Shown here piece after piece: positions 2,835 to 58,254 of a DNA stretch of 64,000 nt; positions within the stretch are counted from its first letter, which is position 1, and each line of letters starts with the position of its first letter. The notes below the pieces were generated by a model, which made no database searches, was not told the origin of the DNA, and saw nothing but the letters and a program-made list of their open reading frames with translations. The stretch comes from Bacteroidota bacterium (GTDB lineage: Bacteria; Bacteroidota; Bacteroidia; 2-12-FULL-35-15), in the NCBI GenBank assembly GCA_025963715.1, contig JAOQAG010000048.1:5553-69552 (forward strand). Direction: 5' to 3'. A program made the position numbers and the translations under genes.

Positions 2835-2986
2835 TAGCGCTGAAACCGATTGTTTATCAGCGTTTTCCGGTGAAAAAGAATAAGTTTAAGAAAAATGCAA
2901 AATTCGCTTGTTTAATAAAACTTATTTCTATATTTGCTTAATTAATAATCAGAATAGTGAGCTTAATCGAATAAATTAGCGTTTTT

Positions 2987-3532: not shown

Positions 3533-3547
3533 AAAAATAAGCGTAGT

Positions 3548-3928: not shown

Positions 3929-3954
3929 GATCAGAAGCTTATTATCATATAAAA

Positions 3955-3986
3955 AAGAACGCATTCGTGAGAATGCGTTTTTTTGT
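3955..3986 (+). terminator. Rho-independent terminator
   Basis: Stem 'gaacgcattc gtga gaatgcgtt' followed by a T7 run, immediately after the DUF1987 stop. Confidence 0.7.
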
Positions 3987-4065
3987 TTAAGATTTTCCCC
4001 GTTCTGATAATTGTCTGAACCTATTTATATGGTAGGCAGATGATATTGATAAAGAGATTTTTTAG

Positions 4066-4183
4066 CCACAGATTCACAGATGAAAAAAACAATAAAAGAA
4101 TTTTCACAGATCATTTCAAATCGCTTTGCGATTTATGCATCTGTGAAATTTTAATCCAAATAAAAAATCTGTGAATCTGTGGC
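4066..4183. repeat. MITE-like element (~118 bp) with 16-bp terminal inverted repeats 'ccacagattcacagat'
   Basis: Left end 'gccacagattcacaga', right end 'tctgtgaatctgtggc'. The interior is the reverse complement of the second copy at 14101-14216. Confidence 0.8.
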
Positions 4184-4338
4184 AAAGATTTTGTTTTCTT
4201 TTGTTCCTTTTGTGGTTCAAATTACACGTTGGTATTCACAGTTTGCCTTATGTGTTTCTTTGTACCTTATGTGGTGAAAAAAACCTGCTGCTAAAAAATA
4301 AAAGAGTTTGATACAAACTTTCCGATAGTCATTTGATA

Positions 4339-4380
4339 AAAAAAAGAGTGCCTTCCGACACTCTTTTTTATTTTATAAAA
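4339..4380. terminator. Bidirectional terminator
   Basis: A-run, hairpin 'agagtg ccttccga cactct', then T-run. It lies downstream of the minus-strand ABC gene. Confidence 0.65.
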
Positions 4381-4388
4381 CGTTTTAT

Positions 4389-7300
4389 TTAATTCGCTTT
4401 TTTCCTTCTTCTGCCAAACAATCCGAAGATCCGTTCCAGCAGATTGATGAATTTTTTCAGTACATCAAAATACAATGTAATTGCCAGTAACAGCGACATT
4501 CCCCAGATCACCGAAATGTTTACCCAGAACGTGTCGTAATACGTGCCGAAGATCTTTTTACGCGGTGCAAAGAAATGCGCCCTGCCTAAATCCGAACTGG
4601 TAGGATCCTGGTATACCGGCTCAATTTTCTGAACATATTCGCCATTCAGGTCAAGAATGCGGTAAGGTGTGGTACGGTTAGTCACCAAATCGTGCAAACT
4701 TTCATTTTCGTAATCATCTTTGTCTTTCAAATATTGCTTGCGCGATACGCTGTCTTTTGTGAGATCGCTTACCTGTTTGTCTTTTTGTTCCGTTGCATTT
4801 TTAAAATTACGCAGGTAATTTTGTTTCAGGTTATCCAAACAAGTACGAACTTCATTGGCAACTGTCGGGCTGAAACGATCTACAGTAAGATCGGACATAC
4901 CGGTACAAATAATTTTGCCATTGCTTTTTACTTTCAATTCTTTTTCCAGTTCATTTTTGATCATCGTCAATGCTGCTGAAACTTCGGCACGGCTTTCCGG
5001 CTTTTTGTAATTGGCTTCGGCGCCTTCCAGTTTTTTGTACATTTCCGTCAGCCAGTAATCTTTTTTATACGTGGCAATGCTGATGGCTTTATCGAATTTG
5101 TATAAGTCCCTATTGAATTTATTATCCTTGAATTGTTTCACTGCCAATGCTTCAAACGCCCAGCGGGATGTCATGATCTCGCCGGAGAACGGAACATAGC
5201 TTTGTGATGTAATAGCAGGATTTAACTTATCGAATTTCACGATCACGCCGCTTAATAATAATTGCGGAATGATCAGAAATGGAATTAAAATGTAAATGGT
5301 TACTGCCGAGTTAAAGCTCGCCGAAATATTTAATCCCAGCATGTTTGCAAAGCAGGAAGTGGTAAACAGCACCAGCCAGTAGGATAAATTCATTCCGTGA
5401 ATTTCCAGCACGTAATTTCCAACGATGATGAACATAAATGTTTGGATTGCCGACAATACAAACATGATGATGATCTTGCTCCACAAATAACTTCCTTTAC
5501 TCAGGTTCAGGAACGACTCGCGTTTTTGAATTTTACGATCGCGGATAATTTCCTCGGCACTCACGGTAAGCCCGATGAACAAGGCAACTACAACGGACAT
5601 AAATAGATACGCCGGTAAATTTTCGTTTTCACGGAAAATGTATCCTACTTTATTGGAAAGGTCGGTGTTGTAAAATTTAATTAAGTACGACAGGATAAAA
5701 GCCAGCACCGGCGCTTCCAGCAGGTTGATGGATAAATATTGTTTGTTTGTTAATTTGGATAATACATCGCGTGTGATGAATACTTTGAACTGGTTAAATT
5801 TATTCGGGCGCTTGAACGTACTTTCCGGGATCTCGGTATAGTTGTCGGTCTCCTCGATTTTTTTCTCGATCTTATCTTTGTAAAAATTATTCCATTCGGA
5901 TGGAGACGTTTTTCTGTTCAGCGTTAAGTTCCCGTACTCATCCAGTACTTTCGATTCGATGATGTTGAATACCTGCTCCGGATTTACGTTACCGCACTCG
6001 ATACATTCGCTTTCGTTACTGTTGGCATGATTTACCACGGTTTTAAAATAGATCACCGAATCCACCGGGTTTCCGTAATAGATCGGGAAACCGCCCACAT
6101 CAAGGATCATCAGCTTATCAAACATTTTAAAAATGTCGGACGACGGCTGATGGATCACTACAAATACCAGCTTGCCTTTTAACGCAAGCTCTTTGAGCAA
6201 GTCCATGATGTTCTCCGAATCGCGGGAAGATAAACCGGAAGTTGGCTCATCCACAAACAAAACAGATGGTTCGCGGATCAGCTCCAATGCAATGTTCAGG
6301 CGTTTACGCTGTCCGCCGGAGATCGTTTTTTCCAGCGGGCTTCCTACTTTCAGGTCACGTGTCTCGATCAGGCCAATATCGGTAAGCACTTTCACCACCA
6401 TGTCGGAAATTTCTTTATCGCCTTTATTGCCGAAGCATAATTTTGCGTTGTAGAATAAATTCTGAAAAACGGTTAATTCCTCGATCAGCAAATCGTCCTG
6501 GGAAACCATCCCGATCACGCCTTCGATCTTATTTTTTTCCGTATGGATATTGATACCGTTAATTTTTACGGAACCGTTGCTTGGAACTTCGTTGCTGTTC
6601 AAAACGTTCAGCAAGGTGGATTTACCGGCACCGGAGCCGCCCATGATCCCGATCAGCTTGCCGGAATCTTCACTGAAATTAATATCGCGCAAGCCAAGCT
6701 TACCACCTTTGAATTTGTATTCGAGGTTTTGCACCACAAAGGATACTTTCGCTTTGGAAGTATCGCTCATGAACGTGCTGAGGATATCGCTGTAATAAAC
6801 CGGTTTTACTTTGGAGCTGCGCAGCGATGATCCCGGTGTGAGGATGTATACTTTACGCGGAATTAAAATTTGTCCGTTCAGCAACAGTTCGCTCTTACCA
6901 AAATAAAGCATGGCGTACATGTTCACGCTGTGGATCCAGAGCACGCGTGCCTGGCCGGTTACGCCTTCGGCATATAAATGTTTTGTTTCTTTAAAATCGT
7001 GTGTTGTTTTATTGTCGATCACCAGTACATTCGGTGAATCGGGGATGCTGGCTTCATTTGCCTGGATAAAGCTCATGCAGCGTTTGTACTCTGCATCTTC
7101 GATGTTAAATGTTTCGGCAACTGTAGTTACAAATTCCAATTCCTGTTCAGAAATTTCCGTATTGGAATTGATAAATTCAATTAAGCGGATGAGTACAACC
7201 ACTTTCTGAACCTGGGTAAGCTCGCTGTTGATCTGGGTACAGATCTTTAAAATTTTAACGGAATTGAGTGAGGTACGTTTGGCGGTACCGTCTTTCTTTT

Positions 7301-7484
7301 TGGTAAGCTGGTGATGTGCTTCCAGGAAATCATCAAAGATCGCGAGGTACTGATCTACTAATTCCTGGTTTAATTGCTGTTTTAAGAATGATTGTACGAT
7401 TAGCCTGCCGTTGTCATTAATTCCGTCGACCCGTGCAATGATCGCAAACATCTGCATCAGGGCTTTTAATATACGTTCACTCAT
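4389..7484 (-). CDS. Multidomain ABC half-transporter: TerB-like N-terminal domain, ABC ATPase, ABC-2 membrane domain, C-terminal extension with an extra TM helix
   Basis: Walker A 'GGSGAGKST', signature 'LSGGQRKRL', Walker B 'VLFVDEPTSG', then about 6 TM helices, in a 1031-aa protein. Confidence 0.8.
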   Translation of the reverse strand: MSERILKALMQMFAIIARVDGINDNGRLIVQSFLKQQLNQELVDQYLAIFDDFLEAHHQLTKKKDGTAKRTSLNSVKILKICTQINSELTQVQKVVVLIRLIEFINSNTEISEQELEFVTTVAETFNIEDAEYKRCMSFIQANEASIPDSPNVLVIDNKTTHDFKETKHLYAEGVTGQARVLWIHSVNMYAMLYFGKSELLLNGQILIPRKVYILTPGSSLRSSKVKPVYYSDILSTFMSDTSKAKVSFVVQNLEYKFKGGKLGLRDINFSEDSGKLIGIMGGSGAGKSTLLNVLNSNEVPSNGSVKINGINIHTEKNKIEGVIGMVSQDDLLIEELTVFQNLFYNAKLCFGNKGDKEISDMVVKVLTDIGLIETRDLKVGSPLEKTISGGQRKRLNIALELIREPSVLFVDEPTSGLSSRDSENIMDLLKELALKGKLVFVVIHQPSSDIFKMFDKLMILDVGGFPIYYGNPVDSVIYFKTVVNHANSNESECIECGNVNPEQVFNIIESKVLDEYGNLTLNRKTSPSEWNNFYKDKIEKKIEETDNYTEIPESTFKRPNKFNQFKVFITRDVLSKLTNKQYLSINLLEAPVLAFILSYLIKFYNTDLSNKVGYIFRENENLPAYLFMSVVVALFIGLTVSAEEIIRDRKIQKRESFLNLSKGSYLWSKIIIMFVLSAIQTFMFIIVGNYVLEIHGMNLSYWLVLFTTSCFANMLGLNISASFNSAVTIYILIPFLIIPQLLLSGVIVKFDKLNPAITSQSYVPFSGEIMTSRWAFEALAVKQFKDNKFNRDLYKFDKAISIATYKKDYWLTEMYKKLEGAEANYKKPESRAEVSAALTMIKNELEKELKVKSNGKIICTGMSDLTVDRFSPTVANEVRTCLDNLKQNYLRNFKNATEQKDKQVSDLTKDSVSRKQYLKDKDDYENESLHDLVTNRTTPYRILDLNGEYVQKIEPVYQDPTSSDLGRAHFFAPRKKIFGTYYDTFWVNISVIWGMSLLLAITLYFDVLKKFINLLERIFGLFGRRRKKAN

Positions 7485-7580
7485 TTGGTTTGGAGATAAT
7501 GTTTAATGCGTGGTTATTTGAAAAAAAAAGACATTAATACCGCAGTAATTAATGCCTTTCAAGCGTTTTGCAATGAATTG

Positions 7581-8015
7581 TTATTTTTGCTGTTTGAAGC
7601 CGATTAATACTACTGCACGGCCGGAACCCTGCGCTGCACCATCTAATTTAGCTTCAATGATACAATCCAATGTGTTTACAATTTTAAAATCCCAGTACGG
7701 TGCATTTTTATAATCACGGTTACTGAATAATAAATTATGTTCTGAATCGTACACGGAAAACACCAGGTTACCATCTGTTAAACCGCTGCAGGCAGCAATG
7801 CGGTATAATGTTCCACCGTAAAGTGTGGTGTGAAATTCTGCCGTTTCATCTGCATTCATCAAGAGTGCACGGTATTGCTGTCCATCGGAAATAAACTGGT
7901 TTTCCAAATGTTTCGCACAGGAGTTGGCAACTGTGTCACTAATTTGAGCAGTAGAAGCATTTGCAATGATAAGTCCACAAATGATAATGCCCAATTTTAA
8001 AAATCCCTTTTTCAT
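7581..8015 (-). CDS. Hypothetical secreted protein
   Basis: N-terminal signal peptide 'MKKGFLKLGIIICGLIIANA'. Confidence 0.5.
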   Translation of the reverse strand: MKKGFLKLGIIICGLIIANASTAQISDTVANSCAKHLENQFISDGQQYRALLMNADETAEFHTTLYGGTLYRIAACSGLTDGNLVFSVYDSEHNLLFSNRDYKNAPYWDFKIVNTLDCIIEAKLDGAAQGSGRAVVLIGFKQQK

Positions 8016-8077
8016 ATTCTATTCTATGTTTTGATAAACGTTGTGTACTGGTTAAAATCTGTCAGGATAAATGCGGT

Positions 8078-8974
8078 TTATCCAACTACCTGGCTTCTGA
8101 TGGATTTGATTTTTAATGTGATCGATTCGATTTGTTCCGGTGTGATCTTTACTTCTGTTTTGCTGTTGATGGTTGTTACTTTTTTATCAGCATCAGTTGT
8201 TGGTTTTTCATATTTGTATTGAAATTCAACGCCGTCAAAAACGGTAGAAAGATCATTCAGATTATCAATAAACTCGGTATACTCAGGCTGACTGTAGTAT
8301 GGAGTTAATAATTTGATAAGACTTTGCAGCGATGATTTTTGTTCTGCAATGCGGTGTTTTACATCTTCGTTCGGTTTTGTTTTGTACACATTGGTAGCAA
8401 AATACAATGTTTCGATCCATCCGCCTGCCAATACCAATCCGCTGACATCGCTGCGGTCGTTGTTTTTCAGGTAAGCATCGCTGGAGCGGTAAGCTGTACC
8501 AACAAGGCCAAGCATGGAATCTTTGGTACCTAAGTTCTTTTGAAAACGTTCTAATAATTTTGTGTCGAATGCGCCGGAAACTCCTAATTCGTCTGCTAAT
8601 TTTTTAGCAGAGTTCAGATAACCGATCGCGTCCTGCGTTTGATCGTAAATAGTTACGTAACCTAAGTCTGCACCATAAATCCCAAGGTTTAACGCTTTGG
8701 AAAAATTAGTGGAATATTGTGAAGATTTACTGGCTGCGTTCAAAATATCTTTGCTGTACGGAGCGCCGCTATTTTTGATCAGGAATGCAGTCTGGATCGG
8801 TGACGGAATACTGAAAATCTCACCATTAACATTTAAAATTGTAGTCTGAGTGCTGTCTACAGGAGCAATTTCGTCCGGATCTTTTGTGGTTCCATTTCCA
8901 CAGCCTGAACTTAAAATGGCAGATGCGGATAATAATAATGCTGCTGCTTTTAACGTATTCGTTTTCAATCTCAT
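8078..8974 (-). CDS. Hypothetical lipoprotein
   Basis: Signal peptide plus lipobox 'LSSGCGNG'. Confidence 0.55.
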   Translation of the reverse strand: MRLKTNTLKAAALLLSASAILSSGCGNGTTKDPDEIAPVDSTQTTILNVNGEIFSIPSPIQTAFLIKNSGAPYSKDILNAASKSSQYSTNFSKALNLGIYGADLGYVTIYDQTQDAIGYLNSAKKLADELGVSGAFDTKLLERFQKNLGTKDSMLGLVGTAYRSSDAYLKNNDRSDVSGLVLAGGWIETLYFATNVYKTKPNEDVKHRIAEQKSSLQSLIKLLTPYYSQPEYTEFIDNLNDLSTVFDGVEFQYKYEKPTTDADKKVTTINSKTEVKITPEQIESITLKIKSIRSQVVG

Positions 8975-9405
8975 TTCAACGTATGTTTTAAAGATGGTTT
9001 TGGTATATAAATGTTTTACTCGAAAATTTTCTAATGAAAGTCCAAAAATAACACTTTATCTAATAAAAATAACAATTCATCTCAAGAATTTTGAAGAAAA
9101 GCTGTTTTTAAATGAAGTGGTGTGAAAGTGACTGATAATGAATGCGTTTGATGCCCGTTAACAGCGCCTGAAAACGGAAAAAGCGGTTTATTTTTTCTGC
9201 GCAAAGCAAATCTGCTATCTGCACACCATTTTCTTTCCATACCAACGTTTGCTATCTACCCCTTCCAGGGGCAAAAAAGCCCTGAAAGGGATTTGTTTTT
9301 TTAACGCTTCAAGTATGGCATCAAAGTATCCGAAGATTTTTTTCTGCGATTGGCAAATTTGCACATCAGAAATCAGAAATCTGCAATCAATTTCGCGAAA
9401 GCGGA

Positions 9406-10008
9406 CTACTCGCGGTAAAAAAGTGTATGCGTTTGGCGGTCCTCAAAACCAAGAATGCCGTATTGCTTGTTGTAGTAGCTTTTCCAGACCATCAGGCCCG
9501 GTGAGGTAAGCGTATCCTGTTGCCCGGCATACACATCCGAGTAAGTAGTGCCGCCAAGTGTGAGGGAGCTGTAAACCTGCGCGGTCATGTACTGGTTGGG
9601 TACGATGGTGTTTGTTCCGTTGATGCTAAACGAACCAAAGCCGTCGAGGATCACATAGTAGATCCCTTCGTTGGGGCCGCCATCGGTATTACCGGTAGAT
9701 ATACTGAGCTGGAATTTATGATTGCGGGAAGAGTCGCTGTTGGCCGTAGCACCAGCATTGGCATAGCAGGGTTTGCAGTAATAGCTGTTGCCCGATTCCT
9801 TTTCACAGTCTTCGCTATAGGATGCCGACTGGCCTTTTATATTCACAACAAAAGAGATCTTCGTGTTATTGGCATTGGTAAAACGGATGGTATCGTTGTT
9901 ATTGTAAACCATCCAGGAAAGATCCCTTAATGCCGGACAATCCTTGGTATGTGAGCCGCAGGAAGCAAAAATGGTAATGAGGGCAAATGCGTACAGTAGA
10001 TATTTCAT
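9406..10008 (-). CDS. Hypothetical Cys-rich lipoprotein (paralog A)
   Basis: 'IFASCGSH' lipobox and a conserved C-terminus '...YYNKQYGILGFEDRQTHTLFYRE' shared with the next gene. Confidence 0.6.
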   Translation of the reverse strand: MKYLLYAFALITIFASCGSHTKDCPALRDLSWMVYNNNDTIRFTNANNTKISFVVNIKGQSASYSEDCEKESGNSYYCKPCYANAGATANSDSSRNHKFQLSISTGNTDGGPNEGIYYVILDGFGSFSINGTNTIVPNQYMTAQVYSSLTLGGTTYSDVYAGQQDTLTSPGLMVWKSYYNKQYGILGFEDRQTHTLFYRE

Positions 10009-10689: not shown

Positions 10690-11871
10690 GTGGAGCAAGA
10701 GAAGGATTTTAAAATGATTGCCAAAACTATTTTTGGTTTGGAGGAAACGCTGTCGACCGAGCTATTGCGGCTGGGTGCAAAAAATGTGGAGATCCATAAC
10801 CGTGCGGTAAGCTTTGAAGGCGATACGGGCTTTATGTACAAAGCCAATTTGTGTTTGCGCACGGCATTGCGCATTCTTGTTCCGTTTGAAACGTTTAAAG
10901 TAACGGATGAAAAATCGCTGTATGCTTCCATGCAAAAAATCGATTGGGAAAAATACATGGATGTGACAGATACGCTGGCGATTGATACGGTGATCAATTC
11001 GGAATTGTTTACGCATTCACAATACATTTCGCAAAAATCAAAGGATGCTATTGTGGATCAGTTTCGTGCCAGGCATGGCGAGCGTCCGTCCGTAGATCTG
11101 GATAAACCAACCATTCGCATCAACATTCATATTTACAATGATACGTGCACGGTAGCGCTGGATAGCTCCGGAGAATCGCTGCACAAGCGTGGCTACCGCG
11201 ATAAAACCAATCTGGCACCGATCAACGAAGTGCTGGCTGCAGGTTTGGTATTGCTAAGCGGCTGGGACAAGCGTACCAATTTTATTGATCCGATGTGCGG
11301 TTCAGGAACAATTGTGATCGAAGCGGCATTGATCGCCAATAATATTCCGGCAGGTTATTTTCGTGAAGATTTCGGGTTTCAGCGCTGGCATAAATTTATG
11401 CCGTATAATGAGGAATTGTGGGACCTGATCTTTGATTCGGCGGTAAACAAAATTACAGATCATCAGCAAACCATTATCGGTGGTGAGCTTTCGAGCAACG
11501 TGGCAAAAAAAGCAAAAGAAAATGTGAAGCTGGCAAAGGTGGATGATGTGGTGGTGATCAAAAATGTGGACATGAAAGATTTTGAAGTGCCACCGGGAAG
11601 AGGCGTGGTTATTATCAATCCGCCGTATGGCGAACGGATGGTAAAAGATAATATTGATGAGCTTTATAAAATGATGGGGGATACATTCAAGAAAAATTTT
11701 TCAGGATACGATTGCTGGATCTTAAGTTCCAACCTGGATGCTTTGAAGAATGTAGGTTTGCGTCCGTCGAGGAAAATATCATTGTTCAACGGTCAGCTGG
11801 AATGTAAATTCATGAAATATGAAATGTACCAGGGGACGAAGAAGATTCATAAGTTGGAAAATAAGGAATAG
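10690..11871 (+). CDS. THUMP-domain class I SAM-dependent RNA methyltransferase (RlmL/COG0116-like)
   Basis: THUMP-like N-terminus, SAM-binding region 'DPMCGSGT', catalytic 'NPPYGER'. The start could instead be at 10714. Confidence 0.8.
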   Translation: MEQEKDFKMIAKTIFGLEETLSTELLRLGAKNVEIHNRAVSFEGDTGFMYKANLCLRTALRILVPFETFKVTDEKSLYASMQKIDWEKYMDVTDTLAIDTVINSELFTHSQYISQKSKDAIVDQFRARHGERPSVDLDKPTIRINIHIYNDTCTVALDSSGESLHKRGYRDKTNLAPINEVLAAGLVLLSGWDKRTNFIDPMCGSGTIVIEAALIANNIPAGYFREDFGFQRWHKFMPYNEELWDLIFDSAVNKITDHQQTIIGGELSSNVAKKAKENVKLAKVDDVVVIKNVDMKDFEVPPGRGVVIINPPYGERMVKDNIDELYKMMGDTFKKNFSGYDCWILSSNLDALKNVGLRPSRKISLFNGQLECKFMKYEMYQGTKKIHKLENKE

Positions 11872-12187
11872 TTTAAAGTTCAAGGTTTGAAAGTTTAAAG
11901 TTTGCTGTGTGGCTCCTGCGGAGCGGTTTTTACCACTAAGGCACTTAGGGCACTGAGAAAAAAAAAGAGAAAAAGAGATTTTGATGTGTGGATCGCTTAC
12001 GCGATTATTTTTTACCACGAAGCCGCAAAGAAAAATTGAAGCGTGTTTTTGTTTTTTTAATGTTTGGTCACAAACTGATACACATAATTCACACACAGAT
12101 TCGTTATTCGTTTAATTCGCTATTCGTTGTACACAGATTGGTATATTAGTATAAATTAGTATTTAGCAGATTCATAGAGTAGATTAT

Positions 12188-13156
12188 ATGAAAAAAATTG
12201 CCGTATTAACATCCGGAGGCGATTCGCCGGGAATGAATGCTTGTTTAAGAGCTGTTGTGCGAACTGCTGTTTATCATAAAATAGAGGTGATGGGCATCAT
12301 GCATGGTTACAATGGGATGATCAAGGATGAGTTTATAAAAATGGATGCAAAATCGGTGGCGAGTATTATTAACCGTGGCGGCACCATTTTAAAAACAGCG
12401 CGGAGCACCGAATTTATGACGACTGAAGGCCGCGATAAAGCATTGACGAATTTAAAAAAACACGGGATCGAAGGCGTGGTGATCATTGGCGGCGACGGTT
12501 CTTTTAAAGGCGCGTTGGAATTCAGTACTATGTGCGATATACCGTTTGTGGGCTGTCCGGGTACCATTGATAATGATTTGCAGGGAACTGATTTTACGAT
12601 CGGTTATGACACTGCGATCAACACGGTGGTGGAAGCGGTGGATAAAATCAGGGATACAGCAGAAAGTCACGATCGTTTATTTTTTGTGGAGGTGATGGGC
12701 CGCGATGCCGGATTAATTGCATTGCGTGCGGGAATTGGCGTGGGAGCAGAAAGTATTTTGATCCCGGAAACAAAAACTGATATTGATGATCTCGTTGTTC
12801 GTTTGAAGAATAAACGCAAGAGTAAAACTTCCAAAATAATTATTGTGGCGGAGGGCGATGAAGCGGGTGGCGCTTTTAAAATTGCGCAAGAAGTAAAAAA
12901 ACAATTACCGGAATACGATACACGTGTAACTATTTTAGGTCACATTCAGCGTGGCGGAAATCCAAGTGCGATGGATCGTGTAAATAGCAGCAGGATGGGA
13001 TTTGCGGCGGTGGAAGCATTAATGCAGGGCAAAAAGAACTGCATGGTGGGGATCATCAATAAAAAAATAGAATACACACCGTTTGAAAATGCAGTAAAAC
13101 ATAATCCGGAGCTGGATCCCGATCTGATGCGCATGGTAAATATTTTGTCGATGTAA
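12188..13156 (+). CDS. pfkA: ATP-dependent 6-phosphofructokinase
   Basis: 'KIAVLTSGGDSPGMNA', 'GGDGS', 'PGTIDND', and the 'RGG' substrate motif. Confidence 0.92.
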   Translation: MKKIAVLTSGGDSPGMNACLRAVVRTAVYHKIEVMGIMHGYNGMIKDEFIKMDAKSVASIINRGGTILKTARSTEFMTTEGRDKALTNLKKHGIEGVVIIGGDGSFKGALEFSTMCDIPFVGCPGTIDNDLQGTDFTIGYDTAINTVVEAVDKIRDTAESHDRLFFVEVMGRDAGLIALRAGIGVGAESILIPETKTDIDDLVVRLKNKRKSKTSKIIIVAEGDEAGGAFKIAQEVKKQLPEYDTRVTILGHIQRGGNPSAMDRVNSSRMGFAAVEALMQGKKNCMVGIINKKIEYTPFENAVKHNPELDPDLMRMVNILSM

Positions 13157-13205
13157 ATCAAAACATTTTCATTTATCGTATGTTATCAGGTAAATAAACT
13201 GCATC

Positions 13206-13865
13206 ATGAGGTTACATAAATTAAAAATCCCGTTTTTCTTTCTGCTGGTGTTCATTACCGTTTCCGGATGTACGTTCTTTCGTCCCAGCCCCAATAAATT
13301 ATTCCGGCGCGCTTTAAAAAACGAACCGTATGATGTGATCATTGTGCCGGGCGTTCCCTTCGATGGAAATACCTGGAGCGTAGCGATGAAGGGACGCGTG
13401 ATCTGGGCGGTGTACCTGATGAAGCAAGGCATTGCAAAAAATGTGATCTTCTCCGGCGGCTCTGTTTATTCGCCGTATGTGGAAGGTAAAATAATGGCTT
13501 TGTATGCCGAAAAAATGGGTGTGGATTCCAGCCATGTTTTTGTGGAAGATAAAGCACAACACAGCACCGAAAATATTTATTATTCGTACTGGATGGCGAA
13601 AAAATTAGGCTTTAGTAAAATTGCCGTTGCTTCCGATCCATTCCAGTCCAATTTACTGATGCGTTTTACCAAACGTCGGTTCAAACTGCCGATCGCGCAC
13701 ATTCCGTATGTGATCGATACGCTGGCGAAAATTGATGATGTGCACCCGGTCATTGATCCTTCTTCCGCTCATGTGGAGAATTTTAAATCCATCGAGGAAA
13801 CGCAAACCATGCGTCAGCGCCTTAGAGGCACGCGGGGGAAGAATATTAAGTATATTAAAGAATAA
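13206..13865 (+). CDS. YdcF/ElyC-family (DUF218) protein
   Basis: Signal peptide, then 'VIIVPG...VIFSGG', typical of the DUF218 fold. Confidence 0.65.
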   Translation: MRLHKLKIPFFFLLVFITVSGCTFFRPSPNKLFRRALKNEPYDVIIVPGVPFDGNTWSVAMKGRVIWAVYLMKQGIAKNVIFSGGSVYSPYVEGKIMALYAEKMGVDSSHVFVEDKAQHSTENIYYSYWMAKKLGFSKIAVASDPFQSNLLMRFTKRRFKLPIAHIPYVIDTLAKIDDVHPVIDPSSAHVENFKSIEETQTMRQRLRGTRGKNIKYIKE

Positions 13866-14100
13866 GGTACGGATAACGCCCGCCTGAACGATTCGGGCAG
13901 GAACAGGAACGAAAAACGAATCTGAGGATCTACTAAATACCAATTATTACTAATATACCAATCTGTGTATTTGCTGTGTACAAATGTTTCTTTGGATCGT
14001 TACCATCTTACGAAGCTGTCATTCCGGGCCTGACCCGGGATCTCATAAATGTTTGCAGCGTTAATTCTTCGGCCTGTCTTGCTGATGCTACTGATCTTTG

Positions 14101-14216
14101 CCACAGATTCACAGATTTTTTATTTGGATTAAAATTTCACAGATGCATAAATCGCAAAGCGATTTGGAAGTATCCGCGTGAATTTTTGATTTCCTTTTTA
14201 ATCTGTGAATCTGTGG
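14101..14216. repeat. Second copy of the MITE-like 'ccacagattcacagat' TIR element (inverted orientation)
   Basis: 'ccacagattcacagat' at 14101 and 'atctgtgaatctgtgg' at 14201-14216. The interior matches the reverse complement of 4082-4167. Confidence 0.8.
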
Positions 14217-14333
14217 CTTCATTTTCTAACGATGCGTTGTCCTTCGGTATTCGTTGTAACTTCCTTCCGGAAATTTTTCCACAGCTTGATTTATCAATCA
14301 ATTTAAAGCGCCATTTGTGTGTATATTTGCACA

Positions 14334-16979
14334 ATGAGTCGCACCACCCTTTTTGTTGATGTAATTTTACCTTTAGCGGTTCCGAATTTATATACCTATC
14401 GCGTTCCATTCGACTGGAACGAGTCGGTAATTGTCGGGCAGCGCGTGATCGTACAATTCGGAAAAGGAAAATTATATTCGGCGCTGGTGCGCAGAGTTCA
14501 TGAACAACCTCCCAAAATTTACGAAGCAAAATACATTGATTCCATTTTGGATGAGTATCCGATTGTGAACGAAACACAATTTGCGTTATGGGAATGGATC
14601 AGCCAGTATTATATGTGTACGATCGGTGAAGTGATGCAGGCGGCATTACCCGGCGGATTGCGGCTGGCAAGCGAAACAAAGATCATTCTTAATCCCTCGT
14701 TTAATAATCAATCGGAAACGGAGCGCCCGCAGATCTTGATTTCCGATAAGGAATATTTGATCATGGATGCGCTGGAGATCCGGCAGGTATTAAGCATCAG
14801 CGATGTGTCGGAAATCCTTGATCAGAAAACAGTATATCCTGTGATCAAAAACATGATCGAAAAAGGAATTGTACTGATCCAGGAAGAGCTGAAAGAAAAA
14901 TACAAACCGAAGATCGAAAGCTTCGTCCGCTTTACGGAGCATGCAGAGCAGGAGGAAAATTTAAAAACCATTTTTGATTCGCTGGAAAAAAAAGCATCCA
15001 AACAGCTGGATGTGGTAATGGCGTTTATCAAACTTTCCGGCAGGTATTCCAAACAGATCAACGAAGTAAAAAAATCGGAGATTGTAAAATTGGTGGAAGG
15101 CGCCGATGCAGCAATAAAAGGATTGGCTAAAAAAAATATTTTTGAAATATACGAACGTGAAGTGGGGCGATTTGCTGCATACACCGGCGAATCAAGGGAT
15201 ACGCATCTGAATGAAATTCAGCAGCAGGTTTTTGATTCGATTAATGCGCAGTTTTTTACCGGACAAAAAGAGCAAGCTGCTAAGGATGTTGTTTTATTAC
15301 ACGGTGTTACATCATCCGGTAAAACCGAAATTTACATCAAGCTGATCGAGCAGGCCATTGCGCAGGGAAAACAAGTGTTGTACCTGTTGCCGGAAATTGC
15401 GCTGACAACACAGATCATCAATCGCCTGCGAAAATATTTTGGCGATGTGGTGGGTGTGTATCATAGTAAGTTTAATGAAAATGAAAGAGTAGAAGTATGG
15501 AACAATGTATTAAAAAGTTCCAATGCGGAAGTTCCAATGCGGAAGTTGGATGAGCTAAATGCAGAAAAAAAAGTTCAAAGTTCAAAGTTCAAAGTTGACG
15601 AACTAAACGCAGAAAAAAATACAGGATCAAACACAGAAACTTTAAAGGTTGAACTTTCCAACTTTAAACTTGTTGTTGGTGCGCGTTCCGCATTGTTTTT
15701 GCCATTCAGTAATTTAGGATTGGTGATCGTGGATGAGGAACATGATTCGTCGTACAAACAATACGATCCGGCGCCGCGCTACAATGCCCGTGATGGCGCA
15801 ATTTACCTGGCGCATCTGCACAAAGCAAAAACATTATTGGGATCGGCAACGCCCAGCATCGAAAGTTATTTTAATGCGCTGGAAGGCAAATACGGTTTTG
15901 CCGAAATGACCAAGCGTTTTGGTGGAATCCAGATGCCGGAGATCTTAATTTCAGATGTAAAAGAAGCGACGAAAAGGAAACAGATGAAATCGCATTTTTC
16001 GCCGATGCTGCTCGATCATGTGACTGCTGCGCTGGAAAATAAAGAGCAGGTGATTTTATTTCAAAACCGCAGAGGATTTGCACCGCAGCTGGAATGCAAT
16101 ACCTGCGCATGGGTGCCGCAATGTGTGAATTGCGATGTGAGCTTAACGTATCACAAAGCAAGCAATCAGCTGCGTTGTCATTATTGCGGATATACTTCCA
16201 AACCACCTGTAAAATGTGCCGCCTGCGGCGATACAGAATTAAAAATGAAAGGTTTTGGTACGGAAAAAATAGAAGAAGAATTGTCGATCTTTTATCCTAA
16301 AGCAAAAATTATGCGGATGGATCTGGATACCACGCGCAGTAAATTTGCGCACCAGCATATCATCCAGGATTTTGAAGATGGTAACATCGATATTTTGGTG
16401 GGAACGCAAATGGTAACCAAAGGATTGGATTTTGATAACGTGAGTTTGGTCGGAATTTTAAATGCGGACGGGATGCTTAATTTTCCTGACTTCCGTGCAT
16501 ACGAGCGCAGTTACCAGCTGATGGCGCAGGTATCGGGCAGGGCAGGGCGAAAAAATAAACGGGGGAAAGTAATTATCCAAACACAAAATCCGGATCACAG
16601 CATTATTCAGGATGTGTGGAACAATAATTATTTATCCATGTATACCAATGAATTGCTCGACAGGCGGAATTTTAATTATCCGCCTTATTTCCGGATCATT
16701 GAGATCACGCTGATCCATCGCGATGTGAACATGGTGAATGAATCGGCAAAATATTTTGCCAATGAATTAAAACATCATTTCGGTAAACGTGTGCTGGGCC
16801 CCGAATTTCCTATTGTTGCACGCGTTCGTAATTTATACCATAAAAATATTTTATTGAAGATCGAGCGGGATGCTTCTGCCTTGCAGGCGAAAAAAATTGT
16901 AGCAGACCTGCTGGTAAAATTCAAAGTGAATCCGGATTTTAAATCGGTAAGAGTGCAAATGGATGTGGATCCAATGTAG
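14334..16979 (+). CDS. priA: Primosomal protein N' (PriA helicase) carrying an in-frame ~50-aa repeat-derived insertion
   Basis: Walker A 'GVTSSGKTE', 'DEEH' box, Cys-rich zinc-binding region 'CNTCAWVPQCVNCDVSLTYH...CHYCGY...CAACG'. The ORF opens with GTG at 14319, and the likely ATG is at 14334. Confidence 0.9.
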   Translation: MSRTTLFVDVILPLAVPNLYTYRVPFDWNESVIVGQRVIVQFGKGKLYSALVRRVHEQPPKIYEAKYIDSILDEYPIVNETQFALWEWISQYYMCTIGEVMQAALPGGLRLASETKIILNPSFNNQSETERPQILISDKEYLIMDALEIRQVLSISDVSEILDQKTVYPVIKNMIEKGIVLIQEELKEKYKPKIESFVRFTEHAEQEENLKTIFDSLEKKASKQLDVVMAFIKLSGRYSKQINEVKKSEIVKLVEGADAAIKGLAKKNIFEIYEREVGRFAAYTGESRDTHLNEIQQQVFDSINAQFFTGQKEQAAKDVVLLHGVTSSGKTEIYIKLIEQAIAQGKQVLYLLPEIALTTQIINRLRKYFGDVVGVYHSKFNENERVEVWNNVLKSSNAEVPMRKLDELNAEKKVQSSKFKVDELNAEKNTGSNTETLKVELSNFKLVVGARSALFLPFSNLGLVIVDEEHDSSYKQYDPAPRYNARDGAIYLAHLHKAKTLLGSATPSIESYFNALEGKYGFAEMTKRFGGIQMPEILISDVKEATKRKQMKSHFSPMLLDHVTAALENKEQVILFQNRRGFAPQLECNTCAWVPQCVNCDVSLTYHKASNQLRCHYCGYTSKPPVKCAACGDTELKMKGFGTEKIEEELSIFYPKAKIMRMDLDTTRSKFAHQHIIQDFEDGNIDILVGTQMVTKGLDFDNVSLVGILNADGMLNFPDFRAYERSYQLMAQVSGRAGRKNKRGKVIIQTQNPDHSIIQDVWNNNYLSMYTNELLDRRNFNYPPYFRIIEITLIHRDVNMVNESAKYFANELKHHFGKRVLGPEFPIVARVRNLYHKNILLKIERDASALQAKKIVADLLVKFKVNPDFKSVRVQMDVDPM
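15514..15672 (+). repeat. Repeat-derived in-frame insertion within priA (direct repeats 'gaagttccaatgcg' x2, 'gagctaaatgcagaaaaaaa' x2, 'aaagttcaaagttcaaagttcaaagtt')
   Basis: Sequence composition matches the intergenic 'aaagttcaaagtt' repeat family. It translates to 'SSNAEVPMRKLDELNAEKKVQSSKFKVDELNAEK...' between conserved helicase blocks. Confidence 0.7.
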
Positions 16980-17082
16980 GGTATGGATCGTACGAATCTG
17001 TATCTACTAAATACCAATTTATACTAATATACCAATCTGTGTGTATGTTGTGTTTGATCCGGGGTGGGATTTATTCCTCGTC

Positions 17083-17180
17083 TTGTCATCCCGGACCTGA
17101 CCCGGGATCCGTCAATTAAAAACTAAAATCATCATCCTGCAAGCATTCATGAGATCCCGGGTCAGGCCCGGGATGACAGT
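17083..17180. repeat. Inverted-repeat hairpin element 'ctgtcatcccgg(a/g)cctgacccgggatc...gatcccgggtcaggcccgggatgacag'
   Basis: Two ~30-bp arms are reverse complements of each other around a ~40-bp spacer. A second full copy lies at 27388-27486, and half-copies at 14016-14057 and 30183-30226. Confidence 0.8.
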
Positions 17181-17356
17181 TTTTATAGTGATGTTATTTT
17201 AAGCAAACATCCAGCATCCACACAGATTAGTACATTCGTATTTATTCGTAATTCGTAACCATTCAGATTCGTAGTTTCGTTTCTGTTCGTTATTCGTAAC
17301 AAAAAAACGGAGCAGCTCCAACAGCCGCTCCGCACTCACAAACCACCACCCAAATT

Positions 17357-18922
17357 TTAATTTATTTTTACAGTCATCGGATTTATTTTTACCGGCAAGC
17401 CATCCGGCCCCACCGCGTATATATTTTCAAAATAAACCCTGTCATTTCTTTTTAGCTTGCCAAATGCATCTTTAGCTGATTGTGGAATGATATTGCCTTT
17501 TATCTTATCTGTTACAATAATTCCTTTTACAGGGTAGCTCACATCAAATGAAATTATTTTACAATGTGCCTCATACACAAAATCTTCATAATTGGCGATC
17601 GGTCCTAATATTGTTGTTAGCTTGTCCCTGCTCATGCTGCCGTCGCCAACCACATCACCAATTTTAGCAGTTGGTTTCGGAATGCGTTTTACACGGAAGG
17701 TCATCACACCCATACTTCTTCTTTCTCCGTTTTCCATTATTGCTGAAACAGTGATATCCGTTTTTGCCCCATCTTTTACATTTAACAAATATTTACCGCT
17801 GCCATCGGGTTTTAACGTTCCATTGTTGATGGAAACACTTAATTTTTCATTTGGGATTCCCGGAACAGAAACTGAAATTGGATTGTCCAGCCCGATGTAC
17901 ACGACATTCATCTTTTCAGCAGAAACAGTGAGCGCAGGCCTTGCCACAATGTATTCGGATTTGAACGGGAATATCATTGGCTTGTTTTGCGGCGACATCA
18001 TTTTAATTGTTCCCGAATAGGTCACAATTCCTTCCTTGCTTGTCTTCACATTGTATTTTCCAAGTCCGCGTTCCACATCAATCGGACTTGTATTTCCATC
18101 GATGGTGATCTCCGGATTTTTTGTTTTGTTAAAAGCAGCAATAAACAGATCGGCTTTGTATTCCTCACCCAGCAATACATAATTACTTTGCGGGATCACT
18201 TTTGCAGCCACGGTATCAAATTTTAAATTCATGGCATCCGTTGCTTTTAACAAATAATCCACGGTTGCCGCTTCTGCATTTTTTACATCATTTTTCATTT
18301 TCGAAAGGATGGTCATGCTGGCAACAATAGGGCGATGGAAAAAATTATACATTTCCCAGTTCTCATTATTTTCGCTGTGTTCCGGATCTTTTGTGTCGAT
18401 GTCGATCCTGATGGATTTTCGATCCGCCGGTTCAATATAATTGGTCAGCAGCGTTCTGTAGTCATTCAATTTGTTTTTCAGCTTCAGGGATTCCCCTCCC
18501 GATCCATCTTCCGAATCACCGATCATCAGGTTGGTTACAGCATCGTAACTGTCCTTGCCGTTGATATTTTCCATTTGCAGTGTATCTGCAATGCTTTGGG
18601 AAACACCTTCCGATTTTACGATCATTTGTTTTTGCAGCCCGTCGATGTAAGCAACAAGCTCTGTCGATTGTTTTTTTATCTGCTGCGCTTTTTCCCAATT
18701 GGGTTTTACCTTTACGGGATCAACGCTTTTTGCCAGATCGAATGCCGAATAGAGCAAATCATTGTGTTCCGAAAAGTTGGTGTTCGTATTTTCTAATCCT
18801 TTGTTTACAACAACAAATGCATCTAAAATATCTTTAGAAACATTCAGTGCCAGCAATGCGGTTAGTACGAGGTACATCATTCCGATCATTTTCTGACGTG
18901 GTGATTCTTTTCCTGAAGCCAT
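17357..18922 (-). CDS. gldM: Gliding motility / T9SS protein GldM (PorM family)
   Basis: N-terminus 'SPRQKMIGMMYLVLTALLALNVSKDILDAF', a single TM helix, and ~520 aa length match the GldM family. Confidence 0.8.
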   Translation of the reverse strand: MASGKESPRQKMIGMMYLVLTALLALNVSKDILDAFVVVNKGLENTNTNFSEHNDLLYSAFDLAKSVDPVKVKPNWEKAQQIKKQSTELVAYIDGLQKQMIVKSEGVSQSIADTLQMENINGKDSYDAVTNLMIGDSEDGSGGESLKLKNKLNDYRTLLTNYIEPADRKSIRIDIDTKDPEHSENNENWEMYNFFHRPIVASMTILSKMKNDVKNAEAATVDYLLKATDAMNLKFDTVAAKVIPQSNYVLLGEEYKADLFIAAFNKTKNPEITIDGNTSPIDVERGLGKYNVKTSKEGIVTYSGTIKMMSPQNKPMIFPFKSEYIVARPALTVSAEKMNVVYIGLDNPISVSVPGIPNEKLSVSINNGTLKPDGSGKYLLNVKDGAKTDITVSAIMENGERRSMGVMTFRVKRIPKPTAKIGDVVGDGSMSRDKLTTILGPIANYEDFVYEAHCKIISFDVSYPVKGIIVTDKIKGNIIPQSAKDAFGKLKRNDRVYFENIYAVGPDGLPVKINPMTVKIN

Positions 18923-19093
18923 GGTATGAGAGTTTAAGAGGGTGAATGAACAATTACTTTTTTGTAAACCGGTTTGTCCTCCTAATGCAGTTGCTTTAAA
19001 AAAGATACAGAAAAAAATAAAAAAAGCGCTTTCCCTTTCGGAGAAGCGCTTCTAAGATGAATTACTGATGTGCAGATTTTAACTATATAAGCC

Positions 19094-19240
19094 TTTGCGC
19101 TCTCTGCGCCTCTGCGGGAAAATGCACACAGCATTTCACACACACAGCTCAGCGTTCTCAGCGTCTCTGCGAGAAATGTATATCATTTCACACGCAGCTT
19201 TGCGAACTTTGCGTCTTTGCGGGAAAATGTACGCAGCTAA
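19094..19240. repeat. Degenerate tandem repeats (~50 bp x3) 'ttgcgc(t)ctctgcg...gaaaatg.a.a.agcatttcacac'
   Basis: Three successive related units lie between the gldM start and the upstream gene. Confidence 0.6.
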
Positions 19241-20124
19241 TAAATTTCAAAAATAATATCGTATGTATCGTTCCCGGATTTGATTGTTTTTAAACAAACC
19301 TTATCCTGTACATGCGCTTGTTTGTGAAAGAGATTGAATTCGTATTTATAATCGCCTTTTCTTGTGTAGGTAATTTCCTCCAGCTTTCCCGGGCCTTTTG
19401 CAGTTTCTTCAATTGTCCAGTCATCATTCATGCATTTACGCAATTGATCATCCACCTGCTTCATGATCATTTTGGAACTTTCCAGCCCAATGTCCACCGA
19501 ATAAACCACGCGGTACGTCCGTGGCCCATCTGCATTTTTTAATCCTTCGATCACGGCAGGCGCTTCAAAAAATAAATTGCAGTATACTACTTTTCCTGCA
19601 TCAGGATAGGTGTGATTGACATTTACAGGCACAAACTCAAAATTGGTATGACTTAGTTTTAATAAAAAATCCAGTTTCTGGCAGCTGGTCCACAAGGGAT
19701 CAATGCGTATTTTTTTATCATGCGCCCAAAAAAGCTGCACCGTTGCATTTCCTTTTTCATGCGGCTTTTGTGTTGTAAAATAAAATTCATAAAGTCCTTC
19801 TTCTCCCGCTGTAAAAGTAAAATCATAAGAGGCAAAGGGCAGGGTGGAAGCATTATTATTGCTCACATTTTGTATGTGGCCGTTCGGATCTTTTACATAA
19901 GCAGCAGTTGTGAATGTTCCCGACTGATAACTGATAAAAAATTTGTCGCCGGGTTGTAAATTCTTGCTGATGCATTCATACAAGCATCCTTTTTTATCCT
20001 GCAGGGAAGTGGATTTTAATTCAATGTCATGCTGTTCATACCAGATCATGCTATCAATGCCCTGCGATTTTAATTGCGGGCACAGCTGAAAAATAAAAGC
20101 CAGGAGGATCACCAGATGTTTCAT
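19237..20124 (-). CDS. Hypothetical secreted protein
   Basis: Signal peptide 'MKHLVILLAFIFQLCPQLKSQG'. Confidence 0.5.
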   Translation of the reverse strand: MKHLVILLAFIFQLCPQLKSQGIDSMIWYEQHDIELKSTSLQDKKGCLYECISKNLQPGDKFFISYQSGTFTTAAYVKDPNGHIQNVSNNNASTLPFASYDFTFTAGEEGLYEFYFTTQKPHEKGNATVQLFWAHDKKIRIDPLWTSCQKLDFLLKLSHTNFEFVPVNVNHTYPDAGKVVYCNLFFEAPAVIEGLKNADGPRTYRVVYSVDIGLESSKMIMKQVDDQLRKCMNDDWTIEETAKGPGKLEEITYTRKGDYKYEFNLFHKQAHVQDKVCLKTIKSGNDTYDIIFEIY

Positions 20125-20126
20125 GC

Positions 20127-21425
20127 TTATTGTTTATTGAGTTGAATATAATTTAAAACCCCCTGAAAGTAGGCTTCTGCCACCTGCTGCACGCGTCCGT
20201 TTTTTGTTTTGTCCGTTTCCATACTCAGTAATTTTAATTCGCTGAGATTGTCCTGGAACAATGTTTCGCCGTATACAAGTGGCGAGTGGATGTATCGCGT
20301 TAACTGTAAGTTCCGGCAATACACGCCTTTTGTTTTTGTGGGTAAACAACCTTCTTTTAAATAATTGGCATCGGTAATACCAGCAGTCGGCACATTCAAT
20401 TTTTTTTCAAAACTATTGACAACACAGGTACTCAACCCGATTGATTTTTCCAGGTCGTCGGTAATTAATAAACGCAAAAACTCAAATCTTTTTTCCAGAC
20501 TTACCAAATCATTTTTCATAAACGCGCCTCCAACAAACGTCATGTCAAAATCACGATCGCCTGGCTTTTCCCATTCCTTGTTGGTTTCATCCACATTGTA
20601 ATGAATAATAATGGTAAGATCCGGTTTGTAATTATTGATGATCTCCGCGCGTTTTGCCAATTCCAGATCTTTAAAAATGATCCTGAAAATATCACGGTCC
20701 TGTGCTTTTGCACTTAATAAATATTGTTTTTGATTTGCTTTTAATTCTCCGATCTTATACAAACTATCCACTGCATTTTTCAGATCCTCTTTTTTCCATT
20801 GTGCGTAGGTTTTCCCAAATGCGGTGTTGCCGTTTTTGCGTGTTAAAAATACTTCCGCGCCTTCTTTTTCTAATTTTTCTTTTAGTAATTGTGCCGTTGC
20901 GTATGTTAGCATCCCTTCCGCGATCTCCATCGAATCAAGCAATCCGGCTGCCGTATCCGCTTTCATTTTAATGTGCTTTTTTTCGAGATCACCCATTTCA
21001 AAATCGTAGGCTATGTGCCCGGGATCAATCGCGATCTTTAAATGCTGCAGTTTTTTTATCCCGGAAGGATCGCCCGGTGGGGGTGGTGAGATCAGGAACA
21101 TACATGGAGCCGGTGCATCGTATATTTTGTTTTGATAGGTATTGAATGCAACGTCGGCCGGACAGTTTTTTAATTCAAATTTCAGTTCCGGTAAATCTTT
21201 CCAGCTAATCGTAAATTCAGCTTGCTGCATACTTTTATTTTGTGCAGATGCATACATTTTTATTCCATCCTTATCAATGGAATAAAAACCCGACAATGCT
21301 TTTTCCTTGTCTAAATACGTTTGTGCTTTTTCTGTATAATATTTAATGTTGGCTTGCACATCATTTATTTGTGCAAAAGAGGAAATGCTGATAAATAAGA
21401 AAAGAAAATGAATTCTGAATTTCAT
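20127..21425 (-). CDS. Secreted protein with a putative N-acetylmuramoyl-L-alanine amidase (Amidase_3-like) domain
   Basis: Signal peptide. 'IAIDPGH' and '...EGAEVFLTR' resemble the Zn-amidase motifs DxGHGG and V.LTR. Confidence 0.45.
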   Translation of the reverse strand: MKFRIHFLFLFISISSFAQINDVQANIKYYTEKAQTYLDKEKALSGFYSIDKDGIKMYASAQNKSMQQAEFTISWKDLPELKFELKNCPADVAFNTYQNKIYDAPAPCMFLISPPPPGDPSGIKKLQHLKIAIDPGHIAYDFEMGDLEKKHIKMKADTAAGLLDSMEIAEGMLTYATAQLLKEKLEKEGAEVFLTRKNGNTAFGKTYAQWKKEDLKNAVDSLYKIGELKANQKQYLLSAKAQDRDIFRIIFKDLELAKRAEIINNYKPDLTIIIHYNVDETNKEWEKPGDRDFDMTFVGGAFMKNDLVSLEKRFEFLRLLITDDLEKSIGLSTCVVNSFEKKLNVPTAGITDANYLKEGCLPTKTKGVYCRNLQLTRYIHSPLVYGETLFQDNLSELKLLSMETDKTKNGRVQQVAEAYFQGVLNYIQLNKQ

Positions 21426-57836: not shown

Positions 57837-57870
57837 TAATGTATCTGCTAAATACTAATTATTACTAATA

Positions 57871-58170: not shown

Positions 58171-58254
58171 ATGTTTAAATTTTAGTGCTTATTATAATTT
58201 CTTTTTTAACAAACACAGCAAACTTTGAACTTTAAACTTTTGAACTTTGAACTA

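Follow-up and report, generated by a model that had tools for sequence, protein, structure and literature searches.

The GldLM complex of Bacteroidota, with GldM as the periplasmic drive shaft for type IX secretion and gliding, is among the few known ion-driven rotary motors, and it has been treated as a single gldL-gldM pair within the gldKLMN operon. Here we describe a second gldM that stands alone, at positions 17357 to 18922 of a 64,000-nucleotide stretch of contig JAOQAG010000048.1 from a Bacteroidota metagenome-assembled genome (MAG). This whole stretch is called the window. We name the window gene gldM2 and the operonic copy of the same genome gldM1. The window gene is an additional paralog beside a complete operon. 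To a specialist, a second motor shaft that is conserved but has a fast-evolving tip would be unexpected, and its function is proposed here from sequence.

Previous works described the architecture of the motor. GldM is a dimer inside a GldL pentamer (GldL5). Its residue R9 pairs with GldL E49 in a salt bridge tied to the motor cycle, and GldM Y17 and GldL E49 are invariant (bioRxiv 10.1101/2020.05.11.089193). In PorM, the D2-D3 domains mediate dimerisation. The D4 domain is sufficient to bind PorN, and PorK binding requires D2-D3 as well as D4 (PMC5790014). Likewise, foci counts in Flavobacterium johnsoniae suggest two GldLM populations, one on the GldKN rings and another free or on the track, moving the adhesin SprB (PMC8986121).

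GldM2 resembles operonic GldM and PorM (6ys8/6ey4 and 7cmg/6ey5) in its transmembrane (TM) helix with R9 and Y17, its helical D1, its beta-rich D2-D4 and its match to the family model TIGR03517. GldL, GldK, GldN and PorP are encoded in the same genome. On the other hand, gldM2 is not beside gldL, gldK or gldN and looks monocistronic. It also coexists with an operonic GldM (36% identity), and D4 is its least conserved domain.

The duplication of one type IX secretion system (T9SS) core component, with the remainder in single copy, has a parallel in GldN/GldO of F. johnsoniae (PMC9127263). However, gldO adjoins gldN, and the two form a partially redundant pair. GldM2, conversely, is far from the operon (about 277 kb in a relative, on another contig here) and belongs to an old lineage. 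The duplicated part is an inner-membrane motor protein and not the ring.

Several stator sets can serve one flagellar motor, and several TonB proteins use one ExbBD. By analogy, GldM2 might represent the same idea of one proton-driven 5:2 core with alternative subunits and different outputs. However, the duplicated part would here be the inner "2" subunit, the position of GldM. To our knowledge, no such subunit swapping has been shown for GldLM.

In the literature, of which our coverage is incomplete so that an earlier mention is possible, we found nothing specific on a conserved stand-alone gldM lineage, on gldM paralogs or on an unlinked gldM. The sole hint is a mention in passing, left unexplained in one paper (PMC5790014), of "extra orthologues of porM" for F. 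johnsoniae.

The window gene encodes a full-length GldM

The gene lies on the minus strand, which the preliminary description of this DNA had not stated. It starts with ATG at 18922, and its product begins with MASGKESPRQKMIGMMYLVLTALLALNVSKDILDAF. The gene and the parts of its product are the following:

17357..18922, minus strand: gldM2, open reading frame (ORF) with translation, 521 amino acids, stop at 17357 (range includes the stop codon)
18833..18901, minus strand: residues 8-30, PRQKMIGMMYLVLTALLALNVSK, single TM helix with R9 and Y17, which couples to GldL
18245..18832, minus strand: D1 (residues 31-226), all-helical, Pfam GldM_1st (E 1.8e-42), helices at 30-232 in the AlphaFold2 (AF2) model
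17942..18235, minus strand: D2 (residues 230-327), beta-rich, Pfam GldM_2nd (E 1.8e-23), strands in the AF2 model
17687..17932, minus strand: D3 (residues 331-412), conserved MNV.Y.G..NP motif, Pfam GldM_3rd (E 5.8e-25)
17360..17680, minus strand: D4 (residues 415-521), fastest-evolving part of GldM2, Pfam GldM_4th (E 2e-13)

The product matches the NCBIfam equivalog TIGR03517 (PorM/GldM) with 359.6 bits against a cut-off of 180, over about positions 1-522 of the 524 in the profile. The four Pfam GldM domains follow each other in order. The homolog of about 520 amino acids that had been proposed from the raw sequence, including the quoted N-terminus, is indeed there. By sequence, the nearest solved structures are Porphyromonas gingivalis PorM (7cmg, E 7.8e-63, residues 5-520) and F. 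johnsoniae GldM (6ys8, E 1.7e-39). The window protein is collinear with the latter from residue 1, and R9 and Y17 fall at the same positions.

The AF2 model, built on an alignment of 50 relatives, has a mean predicted local distance difference test (pLDDT) score of 77, with 81-92 in D4. It presents a TM helix at residues 8-25, a helical D1 and beta-rich D2, D3 and D4. The top Foldseek matches of this model were PorM and GldM (7cmg, E 5.8e-31 over 502 columns). The D3-D4 fragment 6ey6 aligned with a TM-score of 0.75-0.79. Likewise, D1 gave a TM-score (target) of 0.72-0.80 to the GldM and PorM chains of GldLM/PorLM motor structures. By all sequence and fold criteria, the product is a genuine full-length GldM, and only operon membership fails.

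A complete gld operon lies elsewhere in the same genome

The window protein is 100% identical to NCBI MCW3086079.1, which is JWP12_3445 of a "Bacteroidetes bacterium" MAG (174,343-bp contig). The identical gene with its neighbours is present in an independent assembly of the public run SRR13312996 (locus L001; loci fetched for comparison carry such labels). Exact look-ups and the locus context (L173) show that MAG JWP12 has an intact porP-gldK-gldL-gldM-gldN operon on a separate 118,604-bp contig, with these members:

JWP12_993: operonic GldM (GldM1), 533 amino acids
JWP12_994: GldL, TIGR03513 with 258.5 bits against a cut-off of 68.3
MCW3083629.1: GldK
JWP12_996: PorP

Assembly of run SRR13312996 yielded both the operon contig (L173) and the window gene (L001). 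Besides JWP12_994, the best 120 matches of a GldL profile search include a GldL on the 4,523,429-bp JGI contig Ga0590898_0013. The contig belongs to a relative and also carries a stand-alone GldM (P0053). The stand-alone gldM is at ~207 kb and the operon at ~478-498 kb, with the operonic gldM at ~486-487 kb, so that the two copies are about 277 kb apart. L171 and L173 have the same locus order: sigma-54 activator, MiaB-like, topA, arginase-family gene, porP, gldK, gldL, gldM and gldN, with a second gldN in some cases. In L171 the operon sits between the arginase-family gene and DUF2461. A third co-occurrence is probable, since GldM2 P0073 and a GldK of this cluster are both on 174,649-bp JGI contigs. 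Against TIGR03517, GldM1 scores 327-342 bits and GldM2 353-360 bits, and both copies contain the four Pfam domains.

Since the operon is intact in the same MAG and both copies are on one contig in a relative, the window gene is an additional paralog beside a complete operon and not part of a split one. The preliminary description had left open an orphan paralog or a displacement of the partner genes, and had proposed a search of the genome for gldK, gldL, gldN and a second gldM. The GldL profile search and the look-ups returned the complete operon with GldM1 and support the orphan paralog; a simple split of the operon was not what we found.

The absence of gldK, gldL and gldN beside gldM2, also proposed before, extends to the whole window. 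When its main non-overlapping ORFs of at least 150 amino acids were compared with Pfam and NCBIfam, no gldK, gldL, gldN or porP turned up in the 64 kb. None was found among all window ORFs of at least 60 amino acids with custom hidden Markov models (HMMs) from 76 canonical operons. Finally, a search for remnants with the same HMMs in all six-frame fragments of at least 25 amino acids gave only E > 0.4.

Such a lone gldM is rare. In species-representative genomes (32-41% identity, among the matches listed), gldL and gldK are directly upstream of gldM in 76 of 79 loci, and most of these canonical loci also have porP upstream and gldN downstream. The GldL profile found 80 metagenome loci, and gldM adjoins gldL in all 75 that extend beyond gldL. 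This survey gave no K-L-N locus without M and no contig in common with the stand-alone clade. The GldM profile search of genome contigs gave one close relative among the matches listed.

The window has a sugar-nucleotide cluster at 56787-63999 on the minus strand (dTDP-glucose 4,6-dehydratase, UDP-sugar dehydrogenase, acetyltransferase, epimerase and UDP-glucose dehydrogenase). This cluster is collinear, with 64-81% identity, with one found immediately past gldN, in convergent orientation, in eight Flavobacteriales-like lineages (L044, L073, L084, L099, L104, L105, L155 and L162). Neither the window nor its clade (L168-L170) has the gld operon beside this cluster; the operon is at another locus (L171/L173). 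This is a lineage-specific relocation of the operon.

Conservation of the motor helix and divergence of D4

The GldM2 clade keeps 69 of the 71 columns that are conserved in at least 80% of 127 operonic GldMs. They include P8, R9, Q10, Y17, N27, the D3 motif (columns 338-355) and the R410/P415/P417 linker. In D4, the structural core residues P415, P417, F448, P506 and G508 are kept. R9 and Y17 are invariant in the GldM alignment and in the 127 operonic GldMs. Moreover, GldM1 and GldM2 of JWP12 do not differ at residues 8-30, so the GldL-interacting residues, whose check had been proposed, are preserved in the window protein. Gene conversion between both genes was considered for the identical helix and ruled out, because only 67 of 90 nucleotides are identical and many synonymous sites differ.

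We compared the identity of each domain in three sets at similar overall divergence. The difference is D4 minus the mean of D1-D3, in percentage points:

GldM2 clade (7,168 pairs): overall 63%, TM 89%, D1 68%, D2 69%, D3 65%, D4 43%; difference -24
Operonic GldMs (185 pairs): overall 57%, TM 91%, D1 53%, D2 58%, D3 59%, D4 53%; difference -3.5
Four GldM1 of the same clade (domain borders approximate): overall 63%, TM 95%, D1 54%, D2 63%, D3 65%, D4 68%; difference +8

Every pair of the GldM2 clade (100%) has a D4 identity lower than its D1-D3 mean. Conversely, the GldM1 proteins of the same clade have their least conserved periplasmic domain elsewhere, and most comparisons show D4 as the best conserved one. 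Between JWP12 and Ga0590898, for instance, D4 is 86% identical in GldM1 and 37% in GldM2. A 20-residue identity profile agrees with this per-domain contrast.

We also estimated substitution rates for the closest GldM2 pair, the window and L002. The dN value is 0.024-0.045 in D1-D2, 0.16 in D3 and 0.30 in D4. With dS near saturation, dN/dS is 0.04-0.18, and about 0.18 in D4. These values indicate that the whole gldM2 gene is under purifying selection. Because its dN/dS is about 0.18, D4 appears to be still constrained, but much freer than the rest of the protein.

GldM2 is an old and stable lineage

The GldM2 clade contains more than 120 clusters of full-length relatives with 57-84% identity, all from uncultured "Bacteroidia/Bacteroidota bacterium" sources. 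In all relatives with fetched context, gldM2 stands alone:

L002 and L003 (84% identity): gldM2 convergent with priA
L008 (71%): gldM2 alone
L004 (67%): priA convergent on the same side, with four two-component genes between priA and gldM2
L005 (63%): gldM2 convergent with priA
L006 (57%): gldM2 between murF-alr and a sigma-70 gene

The lone state of gldM2 is old and stable. It was not caused by the repeats of the window, because relatives without those repeats have it too.

Within one genome, GldM1 and GldM2 are 36% (JWP12) or 38% (Ga0590898) identical. Between these two genomes, the identity is 61% for GldM1 and 63% for GldM2. Both copies have thus diverged to the same degree and were inherited together. 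In neighbour-joining (NJ) trees of 146 GldMs, the GldM1 and the GldM2 clades each have 100/100 bootstrap support, and they are sisters in 0/100 replicates. The sister of GldM2 is the stand-alone L015 in 56-70% of the replicates, and GldM1 groups with the ordinary operonic GldMs L009 and L109. The phylogeny against operonic GldM, another check proposed earlier, thus places the copies in separate clades. As these are never sisters, GldM2 is no recent duplicate of the operonic gene; the trees indicate an old paralog or an old acquisition.

A second motor unit and the alternatives

From sequence comparison, we consider it fairly probable that GldM2 and the operon-encoded GldL form a second kind of motor unit with altered distal coupling. 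The gene gldM2 would be transcribed on its own. A GldM2 dimer would then insert in the inner membrane inside a pentamer of the operon-encoded GldL, whose gene is the only gldL detected. The identical TM helix suggests that GldM2 would be turned by the proton-motive force like GldM1. At the outer-membrane side, the GldL-GldM2 unit would couple differently, because D4, the PorN/PorK-docking part in PorM, is freed from the constraint seen in GldM1. The GldM2 tip may bind a partner that varies between lineages, or may act on some machine other than the GldKN ring. The result would be two kinds of motor unit per cell on one stator-like core.

A more specific form of this proposal is tentative. GldM1 and GldM2 could be interchangeable rotor subunits, in which GldM1 links GldL to the GldKN ring and GldM2 drives another target through its D4. 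Possible targets would be a surface-adhesin track or another envelope machine. If true, the two GldLM populations suggested in F. johnsoniae (PMC8986121) would here be separated genetically, through the two shafts.

The conserved second gldM, with the same GldL-coupling helix and a freely evolving distal domain, suggests one motor core with alternative drive shafts. Two shafts would offer a handle on how one motor powers both secretion and adhesin movement.

Several points weigh against the proposal of a second motor unit. The placement of the two JWP12 contigs in one MAG rests on binning, which is mitigated by the single-contig relative. Just one GldL was seen on the 4.5-Mb contig among the best 120 matches, and thus a single gldL per genome is not established. 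The domain comparison uses non-independent pairs, which inflates its p-value, and all GldM trees are neighbour-joining only. A cultured member of the GldM2 clade was not found among its relatives. Apart from the priA synteny, no gene is consistently linked to gldM2 in the fetched relatives, hence there is no candidate partner. Finally, the fast D4 could be a mere relaxation of a redundant copy and not the sign of a new partner.

The last point leads to the alternative that survives best, although we judge it rather unlikely: GldM2 would be a redundant or condition-specific isoform. It would dock to the same GldKN ring and add or replace motor units, for example from another promoter. It would have no distinct output, and its D4 would drift since GldM1 bears the essential load. 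The two copies lie above the cut-off of one equivalog model and score alike, the D4 core residues are kept, and D4 is confidently folded in the AF2 model. The paralogs GldN and GldO of F. johnsoniae are also partially redundant (PMC9127263). However, a plain redundant copy is not expected to stay intact across the clade down to 57% identity. The D1-D3 domains are more conserved in GldM2 than in GldM1, and the relaxation is limited to the domain that binds PorN and PorK in PorM.

It is improbable that GldM2 acts as a modulator, which would form heterodimers with GldM1 or compete for GldL pentamers and so tune or brake the motor. The D2-D3 domains, responsible for dimerisation in PorM, are just 36-46% identical between GldM1 and GldM2, even if the identical TM helices and the GldM dimer inside GldL5 make mixed assemblies sterically conceivable.

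In a split operon, the window gene would be the sole gldM, parted from gldK, gldL and gldN by rearrangement. In the window, no gld operon adjoins the sugar-nucleotide cluster, which is next to gldN in eight related lineages, and the window gene is no more divergent from operonic GldMs than those are among themselves. Nevertheless, the same MAG has an intact operonic gldM, a relative has one on the very contig of its stand-alone copy, and 0 of 75 informative metagenome gldL loci lack an adjacent gldM. This makes a split operon extremely improbable.

That the gene is a decaying or non-functional remnant of a duplication, or an artefact of assembly or binning, has hardly any likelihood left: REP-like repeats flank gldM2 and the source is a MAG, but more than 120 clusters have the full-length ORF, dN/dS stays far below 1, 69/71 conserved positions are kept, the same gene and neighbours were assembled independently (L001), and the gene order is conserved in other assemblies.

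Other stand-alone and duplicated gld genes

The combination of an operon with an extra stand-alone gldM on one contig was also observed in L117 (WBZX01001548.1). At 872-9707 it has gldK-gldL-gldM-gldN, two further GldN-model ORFs, an ABC-F-like gene and a second gldM. This second gldM (8055-9707) is full length and lies 4.7 kb past the complete operon. It is 39% identical to the first copy and 30% to the window protein.

Three species-representative MAGs have lone gldM genes with unrelated neighbours (L015, L024 and L079). They come from uncultured Flavobacteriales, CG18 Bacteroidetes and a MAG labelled Chitinophaga pinensis. These genes and the second copy of L117 are full-length, above the TIGR03517 cut-off and without an adjacent gldL. 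Of the four, L015 alone joins the window clade (56-70% bootstrap). The other three (L024, L079 and L117_M2) are elsewhere in the tree and therefore represent independent events. Stand-alone gldM genes arose several times in Bacteroidota, and the two-shaft solution may recur.

The two copies GldM1 and GldM2 also matter for annotation. Pipelines of the PGAP (Prokaryotic Genome Annotation Pipeline) style call both copies "PorM/GldM", and gldM counts, or T9SS loci inferred from gldM alone, can mislead.

Other gld components are duplicated in some loci. L009 has four tandem gldN paralogs at 11637-15458. In the Prolixibacteraceae-like L054, L057, L064 and L069, a second gldK follows directly after gldN at about 12.5-13.9 kb.

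The locus around gldM2

The neighbourhood of gldM2 contains these features:

20127-21425, minus strand: Amidase_3 protein, 432 amino acids, upstream of gldM2 on the same strand
19237-20124, minus strand: secreted protein without family, 295 amino acids, directly upstream of gldM2 on the same strand
19093-19237: three ~40-nt direct repeats (CTTTGCG...GCGGGAAAATG), whose final base overlaps the stop codon of the upstream gene
about 19020-19056, minus strand: terminator-like hairpin of the upstream gene, fold z = -2.76
18923..19236, minus strand: upstream spacer of 314 bp, between gldM2 and the gene of the 295-residue protein
18923-19000, minus strand: conserved 78-nt leader of gldM2, nearly identical in L002
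17297..17333, minus strand: intrinsic-terminator-like hairpin, 11 pairs (7 G-C) and a T-run, 24 nt past the gldM2 stop, from a terminator scan
17005-17299: REP (repetitive extragenic palindromic)-like elements, intergenic between gldM2 and priA
17218-17299: 41-nt tandem pair, REP-like
17084-17109 / 17153-17178: 26-nt palindrome, 96% complementary, REP-like
14319-16979, plus strand: priA, convergent with gldM2, on its downstream side

The amidase and the secreted protein upstream were correctly noted in the preliminary description. However, downstream there is not only repeat sequence: a spacer of 377 bp, with the terminator and REP-like palindromes, separates gldM2 from priA. Nor did the displacement of the partner genes by repeat-rich DNA hold, given an intact operon elsewhere and relatives with the same gene order without repeats. 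Relatives down to 63% protein identity retain the gldM2-priA arrangement, and therefore the repeats displaced nothing. REP-like elements like those that flank gldM2 were found neither in the orthologous spacers of the relatives nor in the other fetched loci, except L001. GC content was uninformative as a link between contigs and lineage.

The hairpin downstream of gldM2 has an RNA folding energy of -25.8 kcal/mol (z = -4.45). With its own terminator downstream, and a hairpin and a spacer upstream, gldM2 looks like a monocistronic unit, as the sequence suggests.

The leader and the first 90 nt of gldM2 (18833-19000) are almost identical to positions 9923-10090 of L002, the relative with 84% identity. 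In these first 90 nt of coding sequence, 88/90 nt match and there are 0 synonymous changes in 30 codons. In the remainder of gldM2, the proportion of synonymous differences (pS) is 0.4-0.67. This suggests selection at the nucleotide level on the 5' end (translation start or a regulatory RNA), and not gene conversion with GldM1.

The pair of Amidase_3 and 295-residue secreted proteins is kept in L002/L003, and L004 has the amidase only. The best Pfam match of the secreted protein is GOLD/EMP24-like and sub-threshold, with 25.8 bits against a cut-off of 25.9. It was considered as a divergent GldL and ruled out, being secreted and without a match to the GldL model. Likewise, an FGE-sulfatase protein near gldM2 in L005 was considered as a stray GldK and discarded, as it matches neither the GldK nor the GldJ model.

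A large Reg_prop/Y_Y_Y/SpoIIE-phosphatase regulator is directly upstream of gldM2 in L005 (6473-9742). In L008 (4763-8047), an ORF similar to it, judged by size only (1094 amino acids), is two genes upstream. A homologous regulator is at the left edge of the window (23-1615, plus strand), about 16 kb from gldM2. The link is too inconsistent for a partner.

Finally, a small protein related to D4 is encoded in the window at 45792-46232 on the plus strand. It has 146 amino acids and a signal-peptide-like N-terminus, and its C-terminal half is a free-standing GldM_4th domain (Pfam PF12080, 27.6 bits against a cut-off of 24.6). It lies between dnaJ and an ABC-2 exporter pair. The ABC transporter beside it was considered as GldA and ruled out, with 181 bits against a cut-off of 403. 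The small protein is closer to the D4 of GldM1 than to that of GldM2, and might compete, as a soluble protein, for the GldN/GldK-binding site or serve there as an adaptor. Its position is conserved in L169 (19111-19548) and L170 (19060-19497).

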